Virus record (IMG/VR): IMGVR_UViG_2778261227_000009
Coordinates: 1-4,587 of that record
Strand: one strand, 5' to 3'
Length of the DNA stretch: 4,587 bases
From: a virus
Lineage: Duplodnaviria > Heunggongvirae > Uroviricota > Caudoviricetes
Below the pieces are notes generated by a model. That model was given only the letters and a program-made list of their open reading frames with translations. It was not told where the DNA came from and did no database searches. The position numbers were made by a program, and so were the translations under genes. This document shows, piece by piece, positions 1 to 4,587 of the stretch; the stretch's first letter is position 1, and the number at the start of each line of letters is the position of its first letter.

Positions 1-534
1 TCACTGATCTATCCCCCAACAGGCTAATGCGCTTTCCTGGTCACGACGAATAACCTGTCCATAGCAGTTATTTGAACTTATGCGGCAATCGCGCCCACCA
101 TCTTTTATCCACCAGCGAATCGCCTCGCATGCACCTTTACGATCACCAGCATTCAGCCGCTTATAAAACGTCGACGGAAAACACTTACCGGGGCCAATGT
201 TATAGGGACAAAATGACGCGATACCCGCTTTCTGTGGTTCCGTCAGTGATACCCGGATGTTTTTCTCCACCCATGCCAGCGCCTTATCACGTTCAATGGC
301 ATTAACCTGATTGCATTTTTCCTTCGACAGTTTCATTCCCGGTATGACGGGCTTACCATCCACCATGGTGGCACCACGACAGATGGTCCAGATACCCGCA
401 CCATCACGGTATGCCGTGGTGTGGTTACCTTCCTTTTCATTCAGAAACTGGTCGAGAATATCAGGCGCGGGCGCACCGACGGCAATCAGTGCCAGAACGG
501 CAGCCGACAGGCCGTATCTGATTTTTGCGTTCAT
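1..534 (-). CDS. rrrQ: SAR endolysin: a phage lysozyme (T4-lysozyme-like muramidase) with an N-terminal signal-anchor-release domain, of the R21/RrrQ type.
   Basis: The 177-aa ORF is complete, with ATG at 532-534 and stop at 1-3. The N-terminus, YGLSAAVLALIAVGAPAP (about nt 454-513), is Gly/Ala-rich and weakly hydrophobic, as expected of a SAR domain. The catalytic triad E35 (nt 430-432), D44 and T50 has the T4-lysozyme spacing E-x8-D-x5-T. The symbol is given by analogy to K-12 Qin RrrQ. Confidence 0.9.
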   Translation of the reverse strand: MNAKIRYGLSAAVLALIAVGAPAPDILDQFLNEKEGNHTTAYRDGAGIWTICRGATMVDGKPVIPGMKLSKEKCNQVNAIERDKALAWVEKNIRVSLTEPQKAGIASFCPYNIGPGKCFPSTFYKRLNAGDRKGACEAIRWWIKDGGRDCRISSNNCYGQVIRRDQESALACWGIDQ

Positions 535-597
535 GGATATTTATCAGGATTTATCGGTTTCTGCCCACGGACAGGTTTATCTGTTCCGGTCAGTGAC

Positions 598-948
598 TTA
601 AGGTTGTGATTCCGGAGGAGTCTTCAGAGAATCAGTAATTCTTCCTGGTAGCTTTCCTTTGTAGGTTATCCACACATTCTGCGCATCTAAAATTACGGGG
701 CGCTTTTCCGGCGACTGCTCATCCCCTTCACATAACCCGGCAGCAACATCCAGGAAGACCTGTCTGATGCTCCTTCTGGCTGCTGCCTCATAAAACTCCA
801 GCGCGGCACCTTCAACACGGTCCAGCGAGATGTCCAGGTCAAAAATTTCGCCGTCAAAGCGTTTTTTGTCCCGTAACGCTAAAGTTACCGTAACTTTATT
901 CTCAAAATTGCGGATCCCTTTCACAATCAGTTCATAGTTTTGAGTCAT
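598..948 (-). CDS. ydfR: DUF1327-family protein (YdfR-like) of unknown function, embedded between the holin and endolysin genes.
   Basis: This 116-aa ORF starts at ATG 946-948 with GGGGAGAG about 9 nt upstream, and that Shine-Dalgarno-like sequence overlaps the 3' end of the holin gene. The position between holin and lysozyme mirrors the K-12 Qin arrangement essQ-ydfR-rrrQ. The family name is recalled, not searched. Confidence 0.75.
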   Translation of the reverse strand: MTQNYELIVKGIRNFENKVTVTLALRDKKRFDGEIFDLDISLDRVEGAALEFYEAAARRSIRQVFLDVAAGLCEGDEQSPEKRPVILDAQNVWITYKGKLPGRITDSLKTPPESQP

Positions 949-952
949 TGAA

Positions 953-1168
953 TTACTCTCCCCGTGCAGCCTTACGCTTGTCTTCTCTGATTTTGAAGTA
1001 CAGATTTGTCAGATAAGTCAGGAAGCCCAGAACCAGACTCCCCAGTACACCAATCGCAGCCCACTGTGAAGGACTGACCTGATCAAGCCACTGTAAAAAC
1101 CAGTAGCCAGCACTACCTGCTGAGGTGCCATAGGCGACACCCGTTGTTAACTTATCCATGGATTTCAT
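953..1168 (-). CDS. essQ: Class II holin (pinholin) of the phage 21 S21 type, 71 aa, with a dual-start motif (Met1-Lys-Ser-Met4).
   Basis: The translation [71 protein letters not shown] has two transmembrane segments and a charged C-terminus, and closely resembles S21. The ATG at 1166-1168 is preceded by GAGGTGGGG about 2 nt upstream. The longer track ORF (to 1231) starts at GTG and would run through the upstream terminator hairpin, so it is rejected. The symbol is given by analogy to K-12 Qin EssQ. Confidence 0.85.
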
Positions 1169-1203
1169 AACCCCACCTCGCAGATGCGGGTGCTGTGTAA
1201 TGG

Positions 1204-1229
1204 AAATAAAAAGGCCACCTGACGTGGCC
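1204..1229 (-). terminator. Rho-independent terminator between the methyltransferase gene and the holin gene.
   Basis: The minus-strand RNA would be GGCCAC-GUCAG-GUGGCC followed by UUUUUAUUUCC. It begins 6 nt after the methyltransferase stop codon (1236-1238) and lies about 35 nt upstream of the holin start. Confidence 0.6.
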
Positions 1230-1235
1230 ACCAGA

Positions 1236-2288
1236 TTATTTCCCCACCAGCTCGTTTATCTCTTTCACTGTCTGATTAAACCGCTCTGACTCAAGCTCAA
1301 CACCTAAGGCCCGACGCCCCAGCGCCATTGCTGCTTTTATTGTGGAACCGGATCCCATAAAGAAATCAGCAACCAGATCACCAGGTCGACTACTGGCATT
1401 GATTATTTGCCGGAGCATATCCGCCGGTTTCTCGCACGGATGTTTACCCGGGTAGAACTGAACGGGCTTATGCGTCCAGACATCGGTATAAGGCACGGAG
1501 ACTGATACGGAGAAATAGCGCCGGAGAGATTTAAACTCATCCAGCAATTCAGAATATTTGCGATTCAGTGAATCATAAGATGCCACCAGCTGGTGGTGTG
1601 GTTGTTCCAGTTGTTGTTCCTGAAACTTCTCTGCCGCTATACGGGAAAACAGTGCCTGTAACTTCCGATAGTCAGCCTCATTCGGCAACTGCCACTGACT
1701 GGCACCAAACCAGTGGGAAACCATATTTTTCTTACCTGTGGCTTCGGCAATTTGTTTTGCCGTTATACCCAGTTCGGCACGAGCATCCCTGAAATACGAT
1801 ATCAGCGGTGCCATTATGTGCTGTTTGAGTTCCCTTTCTTTTGCTGCATAGCCGTCACTTTTGCCGCGATATGGCCCCTGGTAATGTTCAGCAAACAGAA
1901 CGCGCTCTGTGGCAGGAAAATATGCGCGCAGACTTTCTTTATTACACCCATTCCAACGTCCGGACGGCTTCGCCCAGATGATATGGTTAAGCACGTTGAA
2001 ACGTTCACGCATCATGATCTCAATATCAGATGCCAGGCGATGCCCACAGAACAGGTAAAGGCTTCCGGCAGGTTTTAACACCCGCCAGAACTGGGCCAGA
2101 CAGTGGTCCAGCCACTTAAGGTAATCTTCGTCCCCTTTCCACTGATTGTCCCAGCCGTTGGGCTTCACTTTGAAGTACGGCGGATCGGTAACTATCAGGT
2201 CAATGGAATCATCAGGCAGGGACTGAATAAAATGCAGGCAATCAGCGTTGATTAAATCAACACTGTTTATTTTTACAGTATTTTTCAT
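1236..2288 (-). CDS. Solitary DNA methyltransferase of the beta-class amino-methyltransferase family (N6-adenine or N4-cytosine; N6_N4_Mtase family).
   Basis: The 350-aa protein has motif IV DPPY at residues 35-38 (nt 2175-2186, codons checked by hand), HPCEKP at residues 283-288, and the SAM-binding motif I FFMGSGST at residues 309-316 (nt 1341-1364). Motif IV lying N-terminal to motif I defines the beta class. Between the motifs is a long insert of roughly residues 140-270 containing an HTH-like stretch ([14 protein letters not shown]), which is the presumed target-recognition region. No restriction endonuclease partner is visible in the window. Confidence 0.9.
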
Positions 2289-2437
2289 GGATCAGTAAGC
2301 GTAACTCTGGTAGGCTCACTCTGCTTTTGCGCTAAAGCAGTGGGCCATGGTTCGCTTGTGACCAGTAAGCATGAGCGAATGGCTGGCAGGTGCTACCAAC
2401 ACCCACCAGCCGCCCATTTTCACAAATTAAAAGCCCT

Positions 2438-2632
2438 TCATTGCTGAAGGCGTCTGTAACAGCCGAACTGGTTATCTGCCAGCCCCGCCATAACCAGCTG
2501 GGTCAGTATTAACTGACAGCGTTCGCGTGAAAGGTATGTGTTTTGTGCTATCTCCCCGACTGTTGCCGGTTTGCCGTTTAATTCATTAAAAACAACTTTC
2601 GCCGTTTCTGTCATATCTTGCGGTTTTAGCAT
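2438..2632 (-). CDS. Small (64 aa) winged-helix DNA-binding protein resembling the PapI/FaeA family of regulators.
   Basis: The ORF starts at ATG 2630-2632 with AAGGT about 9 nt upstream. The segment GKPATVGEIAQNTYLSRERCQLILTQLVMAGLA resembles the PapI/FaeA core (G-K-x-A-x-x-x-E-I-A ... Y ... R ... L ... AG) as I recall it. No HMM search was run. Confidence 0.5.
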   Translation of the reverse strand: MLKPQDMTETAKVVFNELNGKPATVGEIAQNTYLSRERCQLILTQLVMAGLADNQFGCYRRLQQ

Positions 2633-2753
2633 GTCTTTTTACCTTCATGGTTAACATGACATACCAATAACTCTTGTCTAAAAAGCCAGCAAGATAAAAA
2701 GTCAGTATTCACGACCACCAGCGTGTTTACCGTACTGCACCAATGTTTAATTT

Positions 2754-2777
2754 ATAAAAAAACCGCGAGAACGCGGT
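2754..2777 (-). terminator. Rho-independent terminator downstream of the 176-aa ORF.
   Basis: The minus-strand RNA would be ACCGCG-UUCU-CGCGGU followed by UUUUUUAUAAAUU: a 6-bp GC-rich stem, a 4-nt loop and a U6 tract. It lies 35 nt after the ORF stop at 2813-2815. Confidence 0.6.
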
Positions 2778-2812
2778 AAGTATTGTTAAAAAAAACAGTA
2801 ATTTCACTCAAC

Positions 2813-3343
2813 TTATTTAATACATTCTTTTGCTTGCGCATAATAAATTTTATGAGTATTAGCAAGCTTAACGAAGTTATACTTAACTGCCCCTAACAGG
2901 GTTCCAACTCTTGTATGCCCTTCCATTAAATGAAGCCCTGTTGTATTACTTTTCAGCAAAGCTCGATCTATAAAAAATGGAGGTTTGCACCATGTGCCAA
3001 AATTACACCAATGCGCTTTTATTTCATCATCCATAAATACATCGCCTTTACGGGTTGTGAAATCTTCAACGACCTCATGCAAAAAATCAGGGTAAGTAGC
3101 ATTATCCCCGATAGTTAAAAAATTTTTAGTGGGAAGTTCAATCAATTTCCATTCGATTTGGTCAATATTAAGATTCCCATAAAGCTCCTGAAATCTGTCA
3201 TAACCTGCCAATCCATAATAAATCTCCTGAATTACAGGAGTGGGTGCGGCGATAGAATATTGCTCACGAAGTATTCTTTCAGCCTCAGGAGCTTTAAATA
3301 TGGGTCTTTCTGAGAAAATAGGCAAAAGATCTCGGTATAACAT
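2813..3343 (-). CDS. Hypothetical protein of 176 aa encoded by an AT-rich, compositionally foreign gene (cargo/moron). Its function is unknown.
   Basis: This is an ATG-initiated 531-nt ORF with GGGGA 7 nt upstream of the start. Manual counts give about 30% GC for 3121-3180, against about 55% for 1381-1440 in the neighbouring methyltransferase gene. The translation has no hydrophobic signal peptide or membrane segment. An intrinsic terminator follows the stop codon. I do not recognise the protein family. Confidence 0.65.
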   Translation of the reverse strand: MLYRDLLPIFSERPIFKAPEAERILREQYSIAAPTPVIQEIYYGLAGYDRFQELYGNLNIDQIEWKLIELPTKNFLTIGDNATYPDFLHEVVEDFTTRKGDVFMDDEIKAHWCNFGTWCKPPFFIDRALLKSNTTGLHLMEGHTRVGTLLGAVKYNFVKLANTHKIYYAQAKECIK

Positions 3344-3372
3344 CCATATCCCCGTGTAAGAAAAAATAATTT

Positions 3373-3392
3373 AACCCGCTCGGCGGCGGGTT
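3373..3392 (-). terminator. GC-rich stem-loop (AACCCGC / GCGGGTT, 7-bp stem) between the candidate promoter and the 176-aa ORF. It may be a tR'-like terminator or a 5'-leader hairpin.
   Basis: A perfect 7-bp inverted repeat is visible in the sequence. On the minus strand it is followed by AAATTATTTTTT, so the U-tract is not directly adjacent to the stem and terminator strength is uncertain. Confidence 0.3.
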
Positions 3393-3437
3393 CTTGGACT
3401 TATCAACGGTAGACATACAAAGCCCATCGTTGGGAAA

Positions 3438-3466
3438 ATCTTATCCATGTTTTTTGAGAAATGCAA
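3438..3466 (-). promoter_or_regulatory. Candidate sigma70 promoter immediately downstream of Q, a possible pR'-like late promoter: -35 TTGCAT, 17-nt spacer, -10 TAAGAT on the minus strand.
   Basis: The minus-strand sequence is ATGCTTGCAT TTCTCAAAAAACATGGA TAAGAT TTTCCCA, read directly. It begins about 31 nt after the Q stop codon, which is where lambdoid pR' normally lies. This is a consensus match only, with no experimental support. Confidence 0.3.
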
Positions 3467-3497
3467 GCATCATGTCGCCATCTTCGGTGAAAATCAC

Positions 3498-4250
3498 TTA
3501 TCTCGTCACCTTTCTCAATTGTGCTTCAGCGTAAGCTTCTTCCTGCCAGCACTTTGTAACCAGTTTATCAATGACATCTGCATACCCCTTGTACCACTGA
3601 TAATCCGTCAGGTTCGGTACCAGTTTCTGGACATGATGCCGCGCCAGTGTGGTCGGTAAACGGCTAAACCGATTTCCATTACAACGCCCACAAATCTTAT
3701 AAACCGGCGCGCCATGAAGCCGGGTTCTTTTTTCATCCAGGACAATACCTTTACCCTTACACCCTCTGCACGCTGTGCTGACTTCTCCCTTACCATGACA
3801 ATGCTGACATAGTTCCTTCACCCACTCTTCCTTGATAACAGATTCCCCGCTTCTGGAGTGTTTTACCACCTCGCGCAATACATCATGAAATCCAGTACCA
3901 GCACAATGCTCACAGCGAGCCTTACTTGCCGCAGACCTGGAATAATCAGCAAATGCAAAATTCACAAGGTAAGGGATGATCTGTAACCGGGTTTCTTCAC
4001 TCAATTTATTCAATGTCGGGTTATCCAGTGCCATCGCGTAATTGAGCAGACCTTCAATCGCAAACTGAGGATCCTGAACACCAACTTTTGCCAGAAATAA
4101 GGCAAAACCCAGTGGTGCTTTCGACTGCACCATCCCCTGCGCAGCCATCACATCCGTAATCGTTAAACCACCAGAGCCTGTCGCCGGTGCGTCATCGCTC
4201 AATTTTGGAGATTTTGGGGAGTAATATTTTGGTAAGGCTTCAAGGTTCAT
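3498..4250 (-). CDS. quuQ: Late-gene antiterminator Q (QuuQ-like, about 250 aa) with four CxxCxGxG zinc-finger-like repeats.
   Basis: The protein is Cys/His-rich with four DnaJ-like repeats (CEHCAGTG, CQHCHGKG, CRGCKGKG, CGRCNGNR). It sits immediately upstream of the cargo and lysis genes, as Q does in lambdoid phages. The track ORF (3498..4292) begins with a GTG codon and would overlap the upstream gene by 29 nt. The first ATG, at 4248-4250 (MNLEALPKYY...), is preceded by GTGGAGAACGAGC as a Shine-Dalgarno-like sequence and leaves a 13-nt gap to the upstream stop. The symbol is given by analogy to K-12 Qin. Confidence 0.7.
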   Translation of the reverse strand: MNLEALPKYYSPKSPKLSDDAPATGSGGLTITDVMAAQGMVQSKAPLGFALFLAKVGVQDPQFAIEGLLNYAMALDNPTLNKLSEETRLQIIPYLVNFAFADYSRSAASKARCEHCAGTGFHDVLREVVKHSRSGESVIKEEWVKELCQHCHGKGEVSTACRGCKGKGIVLDEKRTRLHGAPVYKICGRCNGNRFSRLPTTLARHHVQKLVPNLTDYQWYKGYADVIDKLVTKCWQEEAYAEAQLRKVTR

Positions 4251-4263
4251 GCTCGTTCTCCAC

Positions 4264-4587
4264 TTACGCCAGTACGCCAATTGCCAGCGCACGATCGATA
4301 AAACGAAATATCAGCTCCAGCTGAGAGCCATACTTCTCTTCAAATGCCACGGTATCCGCATGCAGCTCGTCGTGATGCTTTCTGCACAAAGGCAACACAA
4401 AGAGGTCATGCGCTTTTGTACCCATTCCCCCCTGACCGTGGCCTATCAGGTGGTGGGGATCATCAGCAGGTTTTCCACAACATGCACACGGCTGTGTCTT
4501 AACCCAGCGTGTGTACTTTTCATTAACCCAGCGGCGACGTTTTGGGCGTAACATAAAAGACTCCGGCGACTCCGGATCCACTTTCAG
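4264..4587 (-). CDS. C-terminal part of a phage nin-region protein with an HNH-like Cys/His motif (DUF968 / YdfU-like). The 5' end is truncated by the window edge.
   Basis: The reading frame is open to the window edge, with no stop between 4582 and 4587, and the apparent first codon at 4579-4581 is GTG, so the gene most likely starts upstream of the window. The translation contains PCACCGKPADDPHHLIGHGQGGMGTKAHD...LPLCRKHHDELH, a zinc-ribbon/HNH-like motif. The stop is at 4264-4266, 13 nt upstream of the Q start. Naming the family DUF968 is from memory and has moderate reliability. Confidence 0.65.
   Translation of the reverse strand: MKVDPESPESFMLRPKRRRWVNEKYTRWVKTQPCACCGKPADDPHHLIGHGQGGMGTKAHDLFVLPLCRKHHDELHADTVAFEEKYGSQLELIFRFIDRALAIGVLA

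Follow-up and report, generated by a model that had tools for sequence, protein, structure and literature searches.

A predicted structured RNA leader and a small winged-helix gene precede an M.EcoGII-type methyltransferase gene in the late region of a lambdoid prophage

We analyzed a stretch of 4,587 nucleotides (nt) from a Caudoviricetes record (IMG/VR record IMGVR_UViG_2778261227_000009, positions 1 to 4,587; hereafter the window), in which a small gene of 64 amino acids (aa) precedes a 350-aa DNA methyltransferase gene. An original prediction, made from the letters of the window, had proposed that the small protein is a PapI/FaeA-like winged helix and that the pair could form a methylation-coupled regulatory circuit. 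Direct reading and the list of open reading frames (ORFs) confirmed that both genes lie on the same strand, separated by a spacer of 149 base pairs (bp). The closest matches to the pair come from E. coli chromosomes, at up to 99.4% identity, and phages mEp460, SfV, Ayreon and cdtI and the Stx2c phages match at ~89-97%. Positions of all features are collected in Table 1.

The 350-aa protein matched PF01555 (1.3e-42) over residues 29-341. Its motifs follow the beta-class order, with DPPY (VTDPPYF) near residue 35 and FMGSGST near residue 310, and its nearest solved relatives are the beta-class enzymes RsrI, MboIIA and CcrM. PADLOC returned a match to MTase_II at 8.6e-153. We found no restriction endonuclease gene in the window, and likewise none adjacent to the methyltransferase gene in SfV, Ayreon and mEp460, which bears out the description of the enzyme as a solitary beta-class methyltransferase. 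Along its full length it is 81% identical to M.EcoGII (282/349 residues, 2 gaps), as compared with a reference sequence that was machine-read from the supplement of the SUPREM paper (PMC11551740) and contains small errors. M.EcoGII and M.EcoGI, orphan enzymes from prophages of E. coli O104:H4 C227-11, resemble the window enzyme in length (~350 aa), in class, in the placement of DPPY near the N-terminus and FxGxG near the C-terminus, and in being prophage-borne without a partner endonuclease. At loci whose methyltransferases share ~95-97% identity with M.EcoGII, we found the same leader and small gene.

Adenine is methylated by M.EcoGII whatever the surrounding sequence (PMC5778455). The enzyme is prophage-borne, is not expressed in the lysogen and is harmful under constitutive expression, and its relatives form a large family in E. 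coli prophages and enterobacterial phages, including 1720a-02 (PMC5778455). Homologues with 92-93% similarity have been called 'nonspecific' in REBASE-based predictions (PMC6602927), and modification by M.EcoGII-type enzymes is described in the literature as blocking many restriction enzymes. By its sequence, we conclude that the 350-aa enzyme is a solitary beta-class N6-adenine methyltransferase of the M.EcoGI/M.EcoGII family. Methylation in any context has been shown for M.EcoGII, whereas for its 81% identical homologue in the window a lack of sequence specificity is predicted from family membership.

Phage mEp460 carries a second methyltransferase besides its late M.EcoGII-type enzyme. This gene lies in the early/nin region (35775-36428) and is annotated 'DNA N-6-adenine-methyltransferase'; the annotation note names a similar SfV DNA adenine methyltransferase (NP_599073).

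The spacer between the two genes is more conserved than either of them. Across 15 species-level loci, mean pairwise nucleotide identity was 85.6% for the spacer (the leader, below), 77.4% for the small gene and 72.8% for the methyltransferase gene. At third codon positions, identity was 56.5% in the small gene and 48.1% in the methyltransferase gene. The leader contains an invariant block of 22 nt (AAATGGGCGGCTGGTGGGTGTT). We worked with one alignment of 78 distinct leader variants (A2) and with a second of 81 variants (A3), made after a covariance model, that includes Mixta, Hafnia and Morganella. The covariance model scored the Hafnia and Morganella leaders at ~95 bits (E ~1e-24) and found a single copy in the window. 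A 187-nt stretch containing the leader (2274-2460) had a minimum free energy (MFE) z-score of -3.67 (0/200 shuffles). Searches of Rfam 15 gave no match at E<=1 on the whole window and no leader match at E<=10 on 2250-2800; the sole weak match was to isrK, at 14 bits, on the upstream terminator.

The methyltransferase start codon had been described as lacking a convincing Shine-Dalgarno sequence. We found this to be true well beyond the window, where the minus strand reads ...GCTTACTGATCC ATG: no purine-rich element is present in any of the 81 leaders. Adjoining the ATG is the block GCTTAyTGATC, which is conserved across the 78-81 leader variants.

Helices were identified with RNAalifold and explicit pair counts. 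The long hairpin formed by P1 and its extension P1ext is nearly always paired, and its changes are wobble or one-sided (e.g., UG44/UA35/GC1 at one pair). P1ext, like the start-site helix below, was 95-100% paired and showed covariation as well. The 5' strand of P1 lies in the invariant 22-nt block together with a Chi octamer (2403-2410) and the AUG of a mini-ORF. In Hafnia the Chi octamer is lost and the P1 hairpin is retained through a U-G to G-C change. Hairpin P2 shows the cleanest covariation. Its pair 45:69 occurs in A2 as UA36/CG28/AU11/UG2 with no variant unpaired, five of its pairs have changes on both sides in A3, and in Hafnia, Morganella and locus L204 two positions that are otherwise mismatched form C-G and G-C pairs. 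Hairpin P3 holds the palindrome that the original prediction had noticed, CTGCTTTTGCGCTAAAGCAG at 2321-2340, which has seven perfect arm pairs and an innermost T/T mismatch; P3 pair 83:105 occurs as CG41/UA21 and pair 87:103 as CG35/UG15/UA13.

A long-range helix involves the methyltransferase start site. The strand GCUUACUGAUCC (2289-2300), which immediately precedes the start codon, pairs with GGUCACAAGC (2354-2363). RNAalifold reported this helix (58-68:125-136) as 95-97% paired, three to four of its pairs are changed on both sides, and the helix is kept with different sequence in Morganella. The GATC at 2290-2293, correctly placed next to the methyltransferase start by the first reading of the window, sits within this covarying helix. 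An 8-bp direct repeat, CAGTAAGC, is indeed present at 2293-2300 and 2363-2370, but its upstream copy is lineage-specific and falls in a variable loop; by our own estimate, ~0.15 such 8-mer repeat pairs would arise by chance in 149 bp. Small motifs of this kind are weak evidence alone. Conservation across leaders lifts the palindrome and the GATC block above chance.

Taken as a whole, the structure has nine pairs with changes on both sides in A3 versus 3.3 in shuffles (0/500 reach 9), although these sequences share ancestry and the shuffle controls are uncorrected for phylogeny. Sliding the pairing partners by one to three columns reduced pairing from 89% to 21-42% (A3). Many of the pairs are G-U, including 44 U-G at one P1 position, as would be expected if the sense strand folds as RNA; neither a DNA palindrome nor an antisense RNA would fit. 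Because they have nucleotides in common, P2 excludes P1ext and part of the start-site helix. The unconstrained MFE picks either conformer depending on lineage and flanks; this comparison rests on unconstrained MFEs only, as enforcing the imperfect P3 pairs penalised both conformers. We conclude from these sequence comparisons that the spacer behaves as a folded sense-strand RNA and not as a promoter or operator.

The mini-ORF in P1 was considered separately. On the minus strand of the window (2396-2417), the 5' strand of P1 begins AUG GGC GGC UGG UGG GUG UU, which would encode MGGWWVL with tandem Trp codons. The mini-ORF that begins at this invariant AUG ranges from 7 to 45 codons in length, and two variants have no stop codon before the aligned stretch runs out. 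In 22/81 variants, the mini-ORF terminates at a stop codon overlapping the start of the methyltransferase gene. We rejected a leader peptide because nothing is conserved past MGGWWVL and the length of the ORF varies so widely. The 5' strand of P1 is invariant while its 3' strand varies, and ribosomes on the P1 AUG would melt P1ext.

The 64-aa protein gave sub-threshold Pfam matches only (TrmB at 0.0054, DprA_WH and MarR_2). AlphaFold (AF2) modelled it with the H1-H2-H3-beta-hairpin arrangement typical of winged helices, with a predicted local distance difference test score of 87 for the best model and 55-66 for the other four, a spread that calls for caution. The best Foldseek matches, among the 50 best listed, were winged-helix domains of MarR/OhrR, IclR and O-methyltransferase proteins at E ~1e-3. 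The protein belongs to PHROG 331, annotated 'function unknown', and some members carry the NCBI name 'TrmB family transcriptional regulator'. The family is very small (61 representatives in a set of 1.84 billion proteins), and its named members come from Enterobacterales genera. Profile searches of the PDB returned no significant solved-structure relatives, and PADLOC reported no defence or anti-defence assignment for this protein, the 176-aa protein or DUF1327.

These searches did not uphold membership in the PapI/FaeA family. No match to FaeA (PF04703) was obtained for the window protein, even at E<=10, or for three more alleles searched at E<=1. PapI, used as a positive control after its sequence was verified against PDB 2HTJ, scored 5.5e-32. 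Aligning the small-protein family profile with PapI in hhalign gave a probability of 1.4%. PapI (2HTJ) was also absent from the PDB profile matches at E<=10 and from the 50 best Foldseek matches listed. We therefore rejected PapI/FaeA membership; the original prediction had itself named a missing match to PapI/FaeA models as grounds on which it would fail. The protein is predicted to have the winged-helix fold at ~60-80 aa that is shared with PapI/FaeA, but the fold is generic and not diagnostic. We conclude that the small protein is, as judged from profiles and a structural model, a generic stand-alone winged helix. At least three alleles of the small gene exist that are ~50% identical to each other; they have a common N-terminus and a near-invariant helix 3 (RCQLILTQLVMAGL). 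Conserved cysteines number two at most, and one in Morganella.

E. coli lineages share a conserved non-coding stretch upstream of the small gene, which can still be recognised in Mixta, Hafnia and Morganella. It follows the pattern TTGCTG-N17-TAYNNG with an invariant CAGAGTTA. We rejected this box as a sigma-70 promoter, as the final T of the -10 element is missing in all lineages. The sequence CAGAGTTAC from the same box recurs in E. coli-type leaders, ~22 nt ahead of the methyltransferase ATG.

We found the pair in 2164/5426 complete E. coli genomes (~40%). When genomes were found through the small gene, the methyltransferase gene lay 150-167 nt downstream in 17/17 species-level genomes. When loci were found through either gene and enough upstream sequence was available, the small winged-helix gene lay 152-155 nt from the methyltransferase gene in 98/99. 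Hafnia phage yong2, Morganella phage IME1369_02 and a Mixta prophage keep the order Q, small gene, 138-153-nt spacer, methyltransferase gene and lysis genes, and their small proteins are 45-53% identical to the window protein. The module is also present in SfV, mEp460, cdtI, phiP27, 1720a-02 and the Stx2a/2c/2d phages and in Klebsiella, Citrobacter, Hafnia and Morganella phages, and it spans phages of four Enterobacterales families. The small gene itself was found in phiP27, 1720a-02 and Stx2c/2d phages. Thus, the pairing of the two genes noted in the original prediction is not peculiar to the window: the small gene and the methyltransferase gene are a co-conserved, but not absolute, module.

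The window covers the part of a lambdoid prophage that is responsible for late regulation and lysis. All of its real genes, including the pair, lie on the minus strand and are transcribed in the order DUF968/HNH, Q, 176-aa orphan, 64-aa gene, methyltransferase, holin, DUF1327 and endolysin; no tRNA genes were found in the window. The Q protein is 99% identical to that of SfV, and the arrangement of a candidate pR' promoter followed by a terminator is conserved in SfV as well. A consensus promoter scan did not call the candidate pR' and found no sigma-70-like promoter on the coding strand between 900 and 3600. As expected for lambdoid late operon cargo, the cassette follows Q, pR' and the first terminator, precedes the lysis genes on their strand and has terminator hairpins on either side, and SfV and Ayreon have terminators annotated at positions equivalent to the window hairpins. 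In lambdoid phages, only Q-modified polymerase reads through such terminators. The hairpin across the small-gene stop codon shows compensatory changes among lineages (CCUUC/GAAGG, CCUCC/GGAGG, CUGCC/GGCGG) and is a better terminator in the E. albertii locus L008, whose methyltransferase is ~95% identical to M.EcoGII. Cargo between Q and the small gene varies among phages, and the region is a known site of mosaic cargo.

In the Stx2a phage Stx2a_1447 (L224, 3501-6531), the cassette lies on the same strand as, and directly upstream of, ileZ-argN-argO and stx2AB, so by its position it would share a late transcript with the toxin genes. In the window, the holin ORF as called mechanically (GTG at 1231) covers the terminator hairpin at 1213-1229. 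The Pfam holin match begins at residue 26 of this ORF, and the true start is therefore probably the methionine of MKSMDK near 1168.

Table 1. Features of the window, in the direction of transcription
Feature	Position	Strand	Evidence or remarks
DUF968/HNH gene	4581-4264	minus	ORF list and profile search
Late antiterminator Q gene	3498-4250	minus	PF03589 2.3e-53, phrog_127 1.2e-108; likely start ATG 4250, mechanical ORF to 4292
Candidate late promoter pR'	3438-3466 (-35 TTGCAT 3461-3466, 17-nt spacer, -10 TAAGAT 3438-3443)	minus	Just downstream of Q; placed by position
Terminator hairpin, first after candidate pR'	3373-3392	minus	Terminator scan
176-aa orphan ORF	3343-2813	minus	ORF list
Intrinsic-terminator-like hairpin with T7 tract, upstream of cassette	2762-2777	minus	Terminator scan
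Conserved non-coding stretch upstream of small gene, CTTGCTGG...GACAAGAGTTATTGGTATGTCA...AAGGTAAAAAGAC ATG	2633-2705	minus	Carries small-gene Shine-Dalgarno sequence
64-aa ORF, winged-helix protein	2438-2632	minus	ORF list
Hairpin across small-gene stop codon, then U-rich tract	2435-2450	minus	Terminator-like match; weak terminator/attenuator
Predicted structured RNA leader, non-coding, without Shine-Dalgarno sequence or Rfam match	2289-2437	minus	Conservation, covariation, covariance model
Long hairpin P1 + P1ext, AUGGGC GGCUGGUGGGUG ... CACCUGCCAGCC AUUC GCUCAU	2371-2417	minus	P1 99%, P1ext 99.6% paired, 81 variants
Hairpin P2, UUCGCUCAU ... ACAAGCGAA	2351-2379	minus	Cleanest covariation
Hairpin P3, holds palindrome 2321-2340	2313-2346	minus	Pair counts
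Start-site strand GCUUACUGAUCC, -12 to -1 before AUG, with GATC and one 8-bp repeat copy	2289-2300	minus	3' strand of long-range helix
350-aa methyltransferase ORF	1236-2288	minus	ORF list
Intrinsic-terminator-like hairpin directly after methyltransferase stop codon	1213-1229	minus	Terminator scan
Phage-21-type holin gene	953-1231 (mechanical ORF)	minus	PF04971
DUF1327 gene, between holin and endolysin genes as in mEp460	598-948	minus	Profile search
Endolysin gene	534-1	minus	ORF list/profile search

We favor, with moderate confidence, a model in which the locus serves lambdoid and related temperate phages of the Enterobacterales as an anti-restriction cassette that is expressed late and depends on Q, with translation gated by the leader and the winged-helix protein acting as an accessory regulator. 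In this model, transcription of the cassette would require RNA polymerase that has been modified by Q and continues into it from pR'. Because the cassette lies between Q and the lysis genes and is bracketed by terminators, the enzyme would stay off in the lysogen and act late in the lytic cycle; the predicted silence matches the report on M.EcoGII. Enzyme made late would methylate progeny DNA broadly, leading to protection against restriction. The ~130-nt leader may gate translation of this toxic enzyme through two mutually exclusive conformers, one in which the start-site helix pairs the 12 nt before the Shine-Dalgarno-less AUG and an alternative built on P2. The 64-aa protein would be a frequent but dispensable partner of the methyltransferase, most likely an accessory regulator of the cassette. 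It might act on the leader in trans, analogously to Com (Mu com-mom, FluMu com-hin1523), or its gene might act in cis, its translation bringing ribosomes to the leader. Dependence on Q, gating of translation and any part played by the winged-helix protein are inferred from sequence. An anti-restriction methylase with its own regulator had been offered in the original prediction as an alternative to a switch, and this comes close to what the evidence favors, with the winged-helix protein as a putative regulator.

Several observations weigh against this model. The start-site helix is not evident in Hafnia, and the shared ancestry of the leaders and the machine-read M.EcoGII reference, both mentioned above, count here as well. 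Four loci have the leader and methyltransferase gene without an intact small gene. One of these (L166) reads Q-pR'-terminator-leader-methyltransferase, with the Q-proximal terminator filling the position of the stop-codon hairpin directly before the leader; two (L161 and L177) have other sequence upstream of the leader, and the last (L104) is a deletion variant in which only the 3' end of the small gene is left. Conversely, three IMG/VR contigs (L117, L155, L181) keep the small gene and P1, and then have genes for an AraC-like regulator and a NanS-p esterase (nanS-p) that replace the methyltransferase gene before the holin gene, with the breakpoint just after P1. Both the leader and the small gene are missing from an Erwinia endophytica prophage with a 78% identical methyltransferase. 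Small-protein alleles that are only ~50% identical precede identical leaders, so there is no allele-specific co-variation between the two. Finally, the small protein is near neutral in charge (as counted from its sequence) and lacks a Com-like zinc finger. That the small gene is occasionally missing, and that its alleles do not co-vary with the leader, makes it less likely that the small protein is strictly needed.

The same exceptions bear on a competing explanation, which we consider unlikely. It holds that the small gene and the methyltransferase gene are functionally independent and adjacent by descent and modular exchange at a known mosaic cargo site. The leader would then be a cis element of the methyltransferase gene alone, either a translation or stability element or an RNase III site, and the winged helix would be unrelated. 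That each gene is found without the other, that the small gene can precede the AraC-like gene and nanS-p, and that divergent small-gene alleles precede identical leaders are all consistent with this explanation. It fits less well with an order and a 138-167-nt spacing that are held across four Enterobacterales families despite ~50% protein divergence. Helix 3 (RCQLILTQLVMAGL) is near invariant while the rest of the small protein diverges, and the one homologue without the leader is also without the small gene.

A more elaborate version of the favored model would make the leader a riboregulator that switches between the start-sequestering and P2 conformers, with the 64-aa protein as its dedicated effector. 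We regard this version as rather improbable. The effector could be an RNA-binding translational activator, as a non-homologous analogue of Com, or a sensor of methylation state that feeds back on the methylase. In a variant of the same idea, ribosomes from the small gene that re-initiate at the invariant P1 AUG would drive the switch.

We find it doubtful that the winged-helix protein is a conventional DNA-binding transcription factor, acting as a repressor or autoregulator at the box upstream of its own gene, or on host genes, and not on RNA, with the leader independent of it. Its fold, the weak hidden Markov model matches to TrmB, MarR and IclR, and the 'TrmB family' names at NCBI point in this direction, as do the conserved upstream box and the recurrence of part of that box (CAGAGTTA) before the methyltransferase start. 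However, those matches fall below curated thresholds, the protein has no recognisable dimerisation domain, and we detected no promoter-like target. No palindromic operator is evident besides P3, which behaves as RNA.

Conservation of the spacer could also reflect an element that works at the level of DNA, such as a recombination linker that contains Chi and lies at a mosaic boundary, or a site bound by protein. Chi does lie in the invariant block and is over-represented and co-oriented both here and in mEp460, and mosaic breakpoints occur at or next to P1. The Hafnia leader, which loses Chi and keeps the hairpin, the extent of conservation (~130 nt), and the multiple covarying pairs with many G-U, which are sensible only in a sense-strand RNA, make this reading very improbable.

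A heritable ON/OFF switch along the lines of the original prediction, in which a PapI/FaeA-type factor would act with Dam and Lrp at the spacer GATC and be coupled to the methyltransferase, is scarcely credible. A stand-alone winged helix of ~64 aa does adjoin an adenine methyltransferase gene, and a conserved GATC abuts the start codon, but beyond the failed family assignment this GATC is the only one between 2289 and 2964, is accounted for by the covarying RNA helix and belongs to a motif that is not enriched in the window (16 observed vs 14.3 expected), and the locus offers no spacer promoter, an enzyme from a non-specific family and a phage late operon in place of a fimbrial regulatory region. 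PapI works at the regulatory region of a fimbrial operon, where Lrp sites contain two Dam GATC sites. The likeness of the window to PapI/FaeA systems consists of a small stand-alone winged helix of similar size and a thematic link to adenine methylation. The two differ in that there is no sequence-family relation and there are no paired GATC sites, and the neighbors in the window are Q, holin and endolysin genes.

We compared the cassette to other systems in which a small gene precedes a modification gene. In Mu-like prophages, a com-like gene is followed by a gene for a non-specific adenine methyltransferase (Hin1523, Nma1821, Hia5) (PMC3299994). Both these prophages and the Mu com-mom operon resemble the window in having a small gene directly upstream of a gene for a modification enzyme that is toxic, late and broadly anti-restriction (PMC3299994), properties that are predicted for the window enzyme. 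In com-mom, the start region of the enzyme gene lies in an RNA secondary structure and the enzyme is silent in lysogens, features whose counterparts in the window are predicted. The small upstream gene of the window differs in its product. Com is a zinc finger with four cysteines, whereas the window protein is a predicted winged helix with no more than two conserved cysteines. The enzymes differ as well: the window enzyme is beta-class, whereas Hia5, Hin1523 and Nme1821 are aligned with Dam and DpnII (PMC3299994, Figure 1 legend). Control of transcription in com-mom involves a promoter regulated by Dam, OxyR and C, whereas Q antitermination is the candidate mechanism here. The likeness to com-mom thus appears to be functional only, as the proteins are not homologous, and Mu-like prophages with a com-like gene and a methylase would be a closer parallel than Mu itself.

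C proteins of restriction-modification systems offer another comparison. These are Xre-type helix-turn-helix dimers that bind C-boxes in promoters and time expression of the modification or restriction gene. Like the window, such systems have a small gene for a predicted DNA-binding fold just upstream of a modification or restriction gene. They differ in that the window has a winged helix and lacks an endonuclease gene, a promoter and C-box-like repeats.

A side observation concerns Chi (GCTGGTGG), which occurs in the window on the minus strand at 109-116, 1244-1251, 1583-1590, 2403-2410 and 2715-2722 and on the plus strand at 1589-1596. These six copies compare with 0.2 expected (0/200 shuffles reach 6), and five of them are on the sense strand of the late operon. 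Across the whole genome of mEp460 (L227), 16 copies lie on the late-gene strand and 4 on the other, with ~1 expected per strand; 11/16 fall in the last 11.4 kb, and none lies across the 22-kb block of structural genes. RecBCD that enters from the cos-proximal right end reads Chi in this orientation. Because of this fit, the Chi bias suggests protection of the phage from RecBCD.

M.EcoGII is widely used as a reagent for N6-methyladenine footprinting of accessible DNA and chromatin. We know of no description of its natural regulation or of its role in phage biology. We found no description of the small gene or leader in the literature on M.EcoGII, and the paper on the enzyme presents an isolated orphan gene, without the upstream winged-helix gene and leader (PMC5778455). 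M.EcoGII has also been engineered for RNA methylation (PMC11551740). The enzyme is therefore known, but the architecture of the cassette and, above all, the structured leader appear to be undescribed. For the leader, this is based on the absence of an Rfam family and of any mention that we could find in the M.EcoGII literature. We rate the cassette as a probable late-expressed, post-transcriptionally controlled phage DNA-modification gene, which is a known theme.

If the favored model is correct, gating by the leader would explain why the enzyme is silent in lysogens, and the leader would be a candidate class of cis-regulatory RNA that is absent from Rfam. The cassette would then be a second case of the com-mom design, non-homologous to the first, with a lethal DNA-modification enzyme under the joint control of a small gene and an RNA structure. 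Should progeny DNA be hypermethylated by the methylase, the cassette would bear on how Stx and other lambdoid phages cross restriction barriers.

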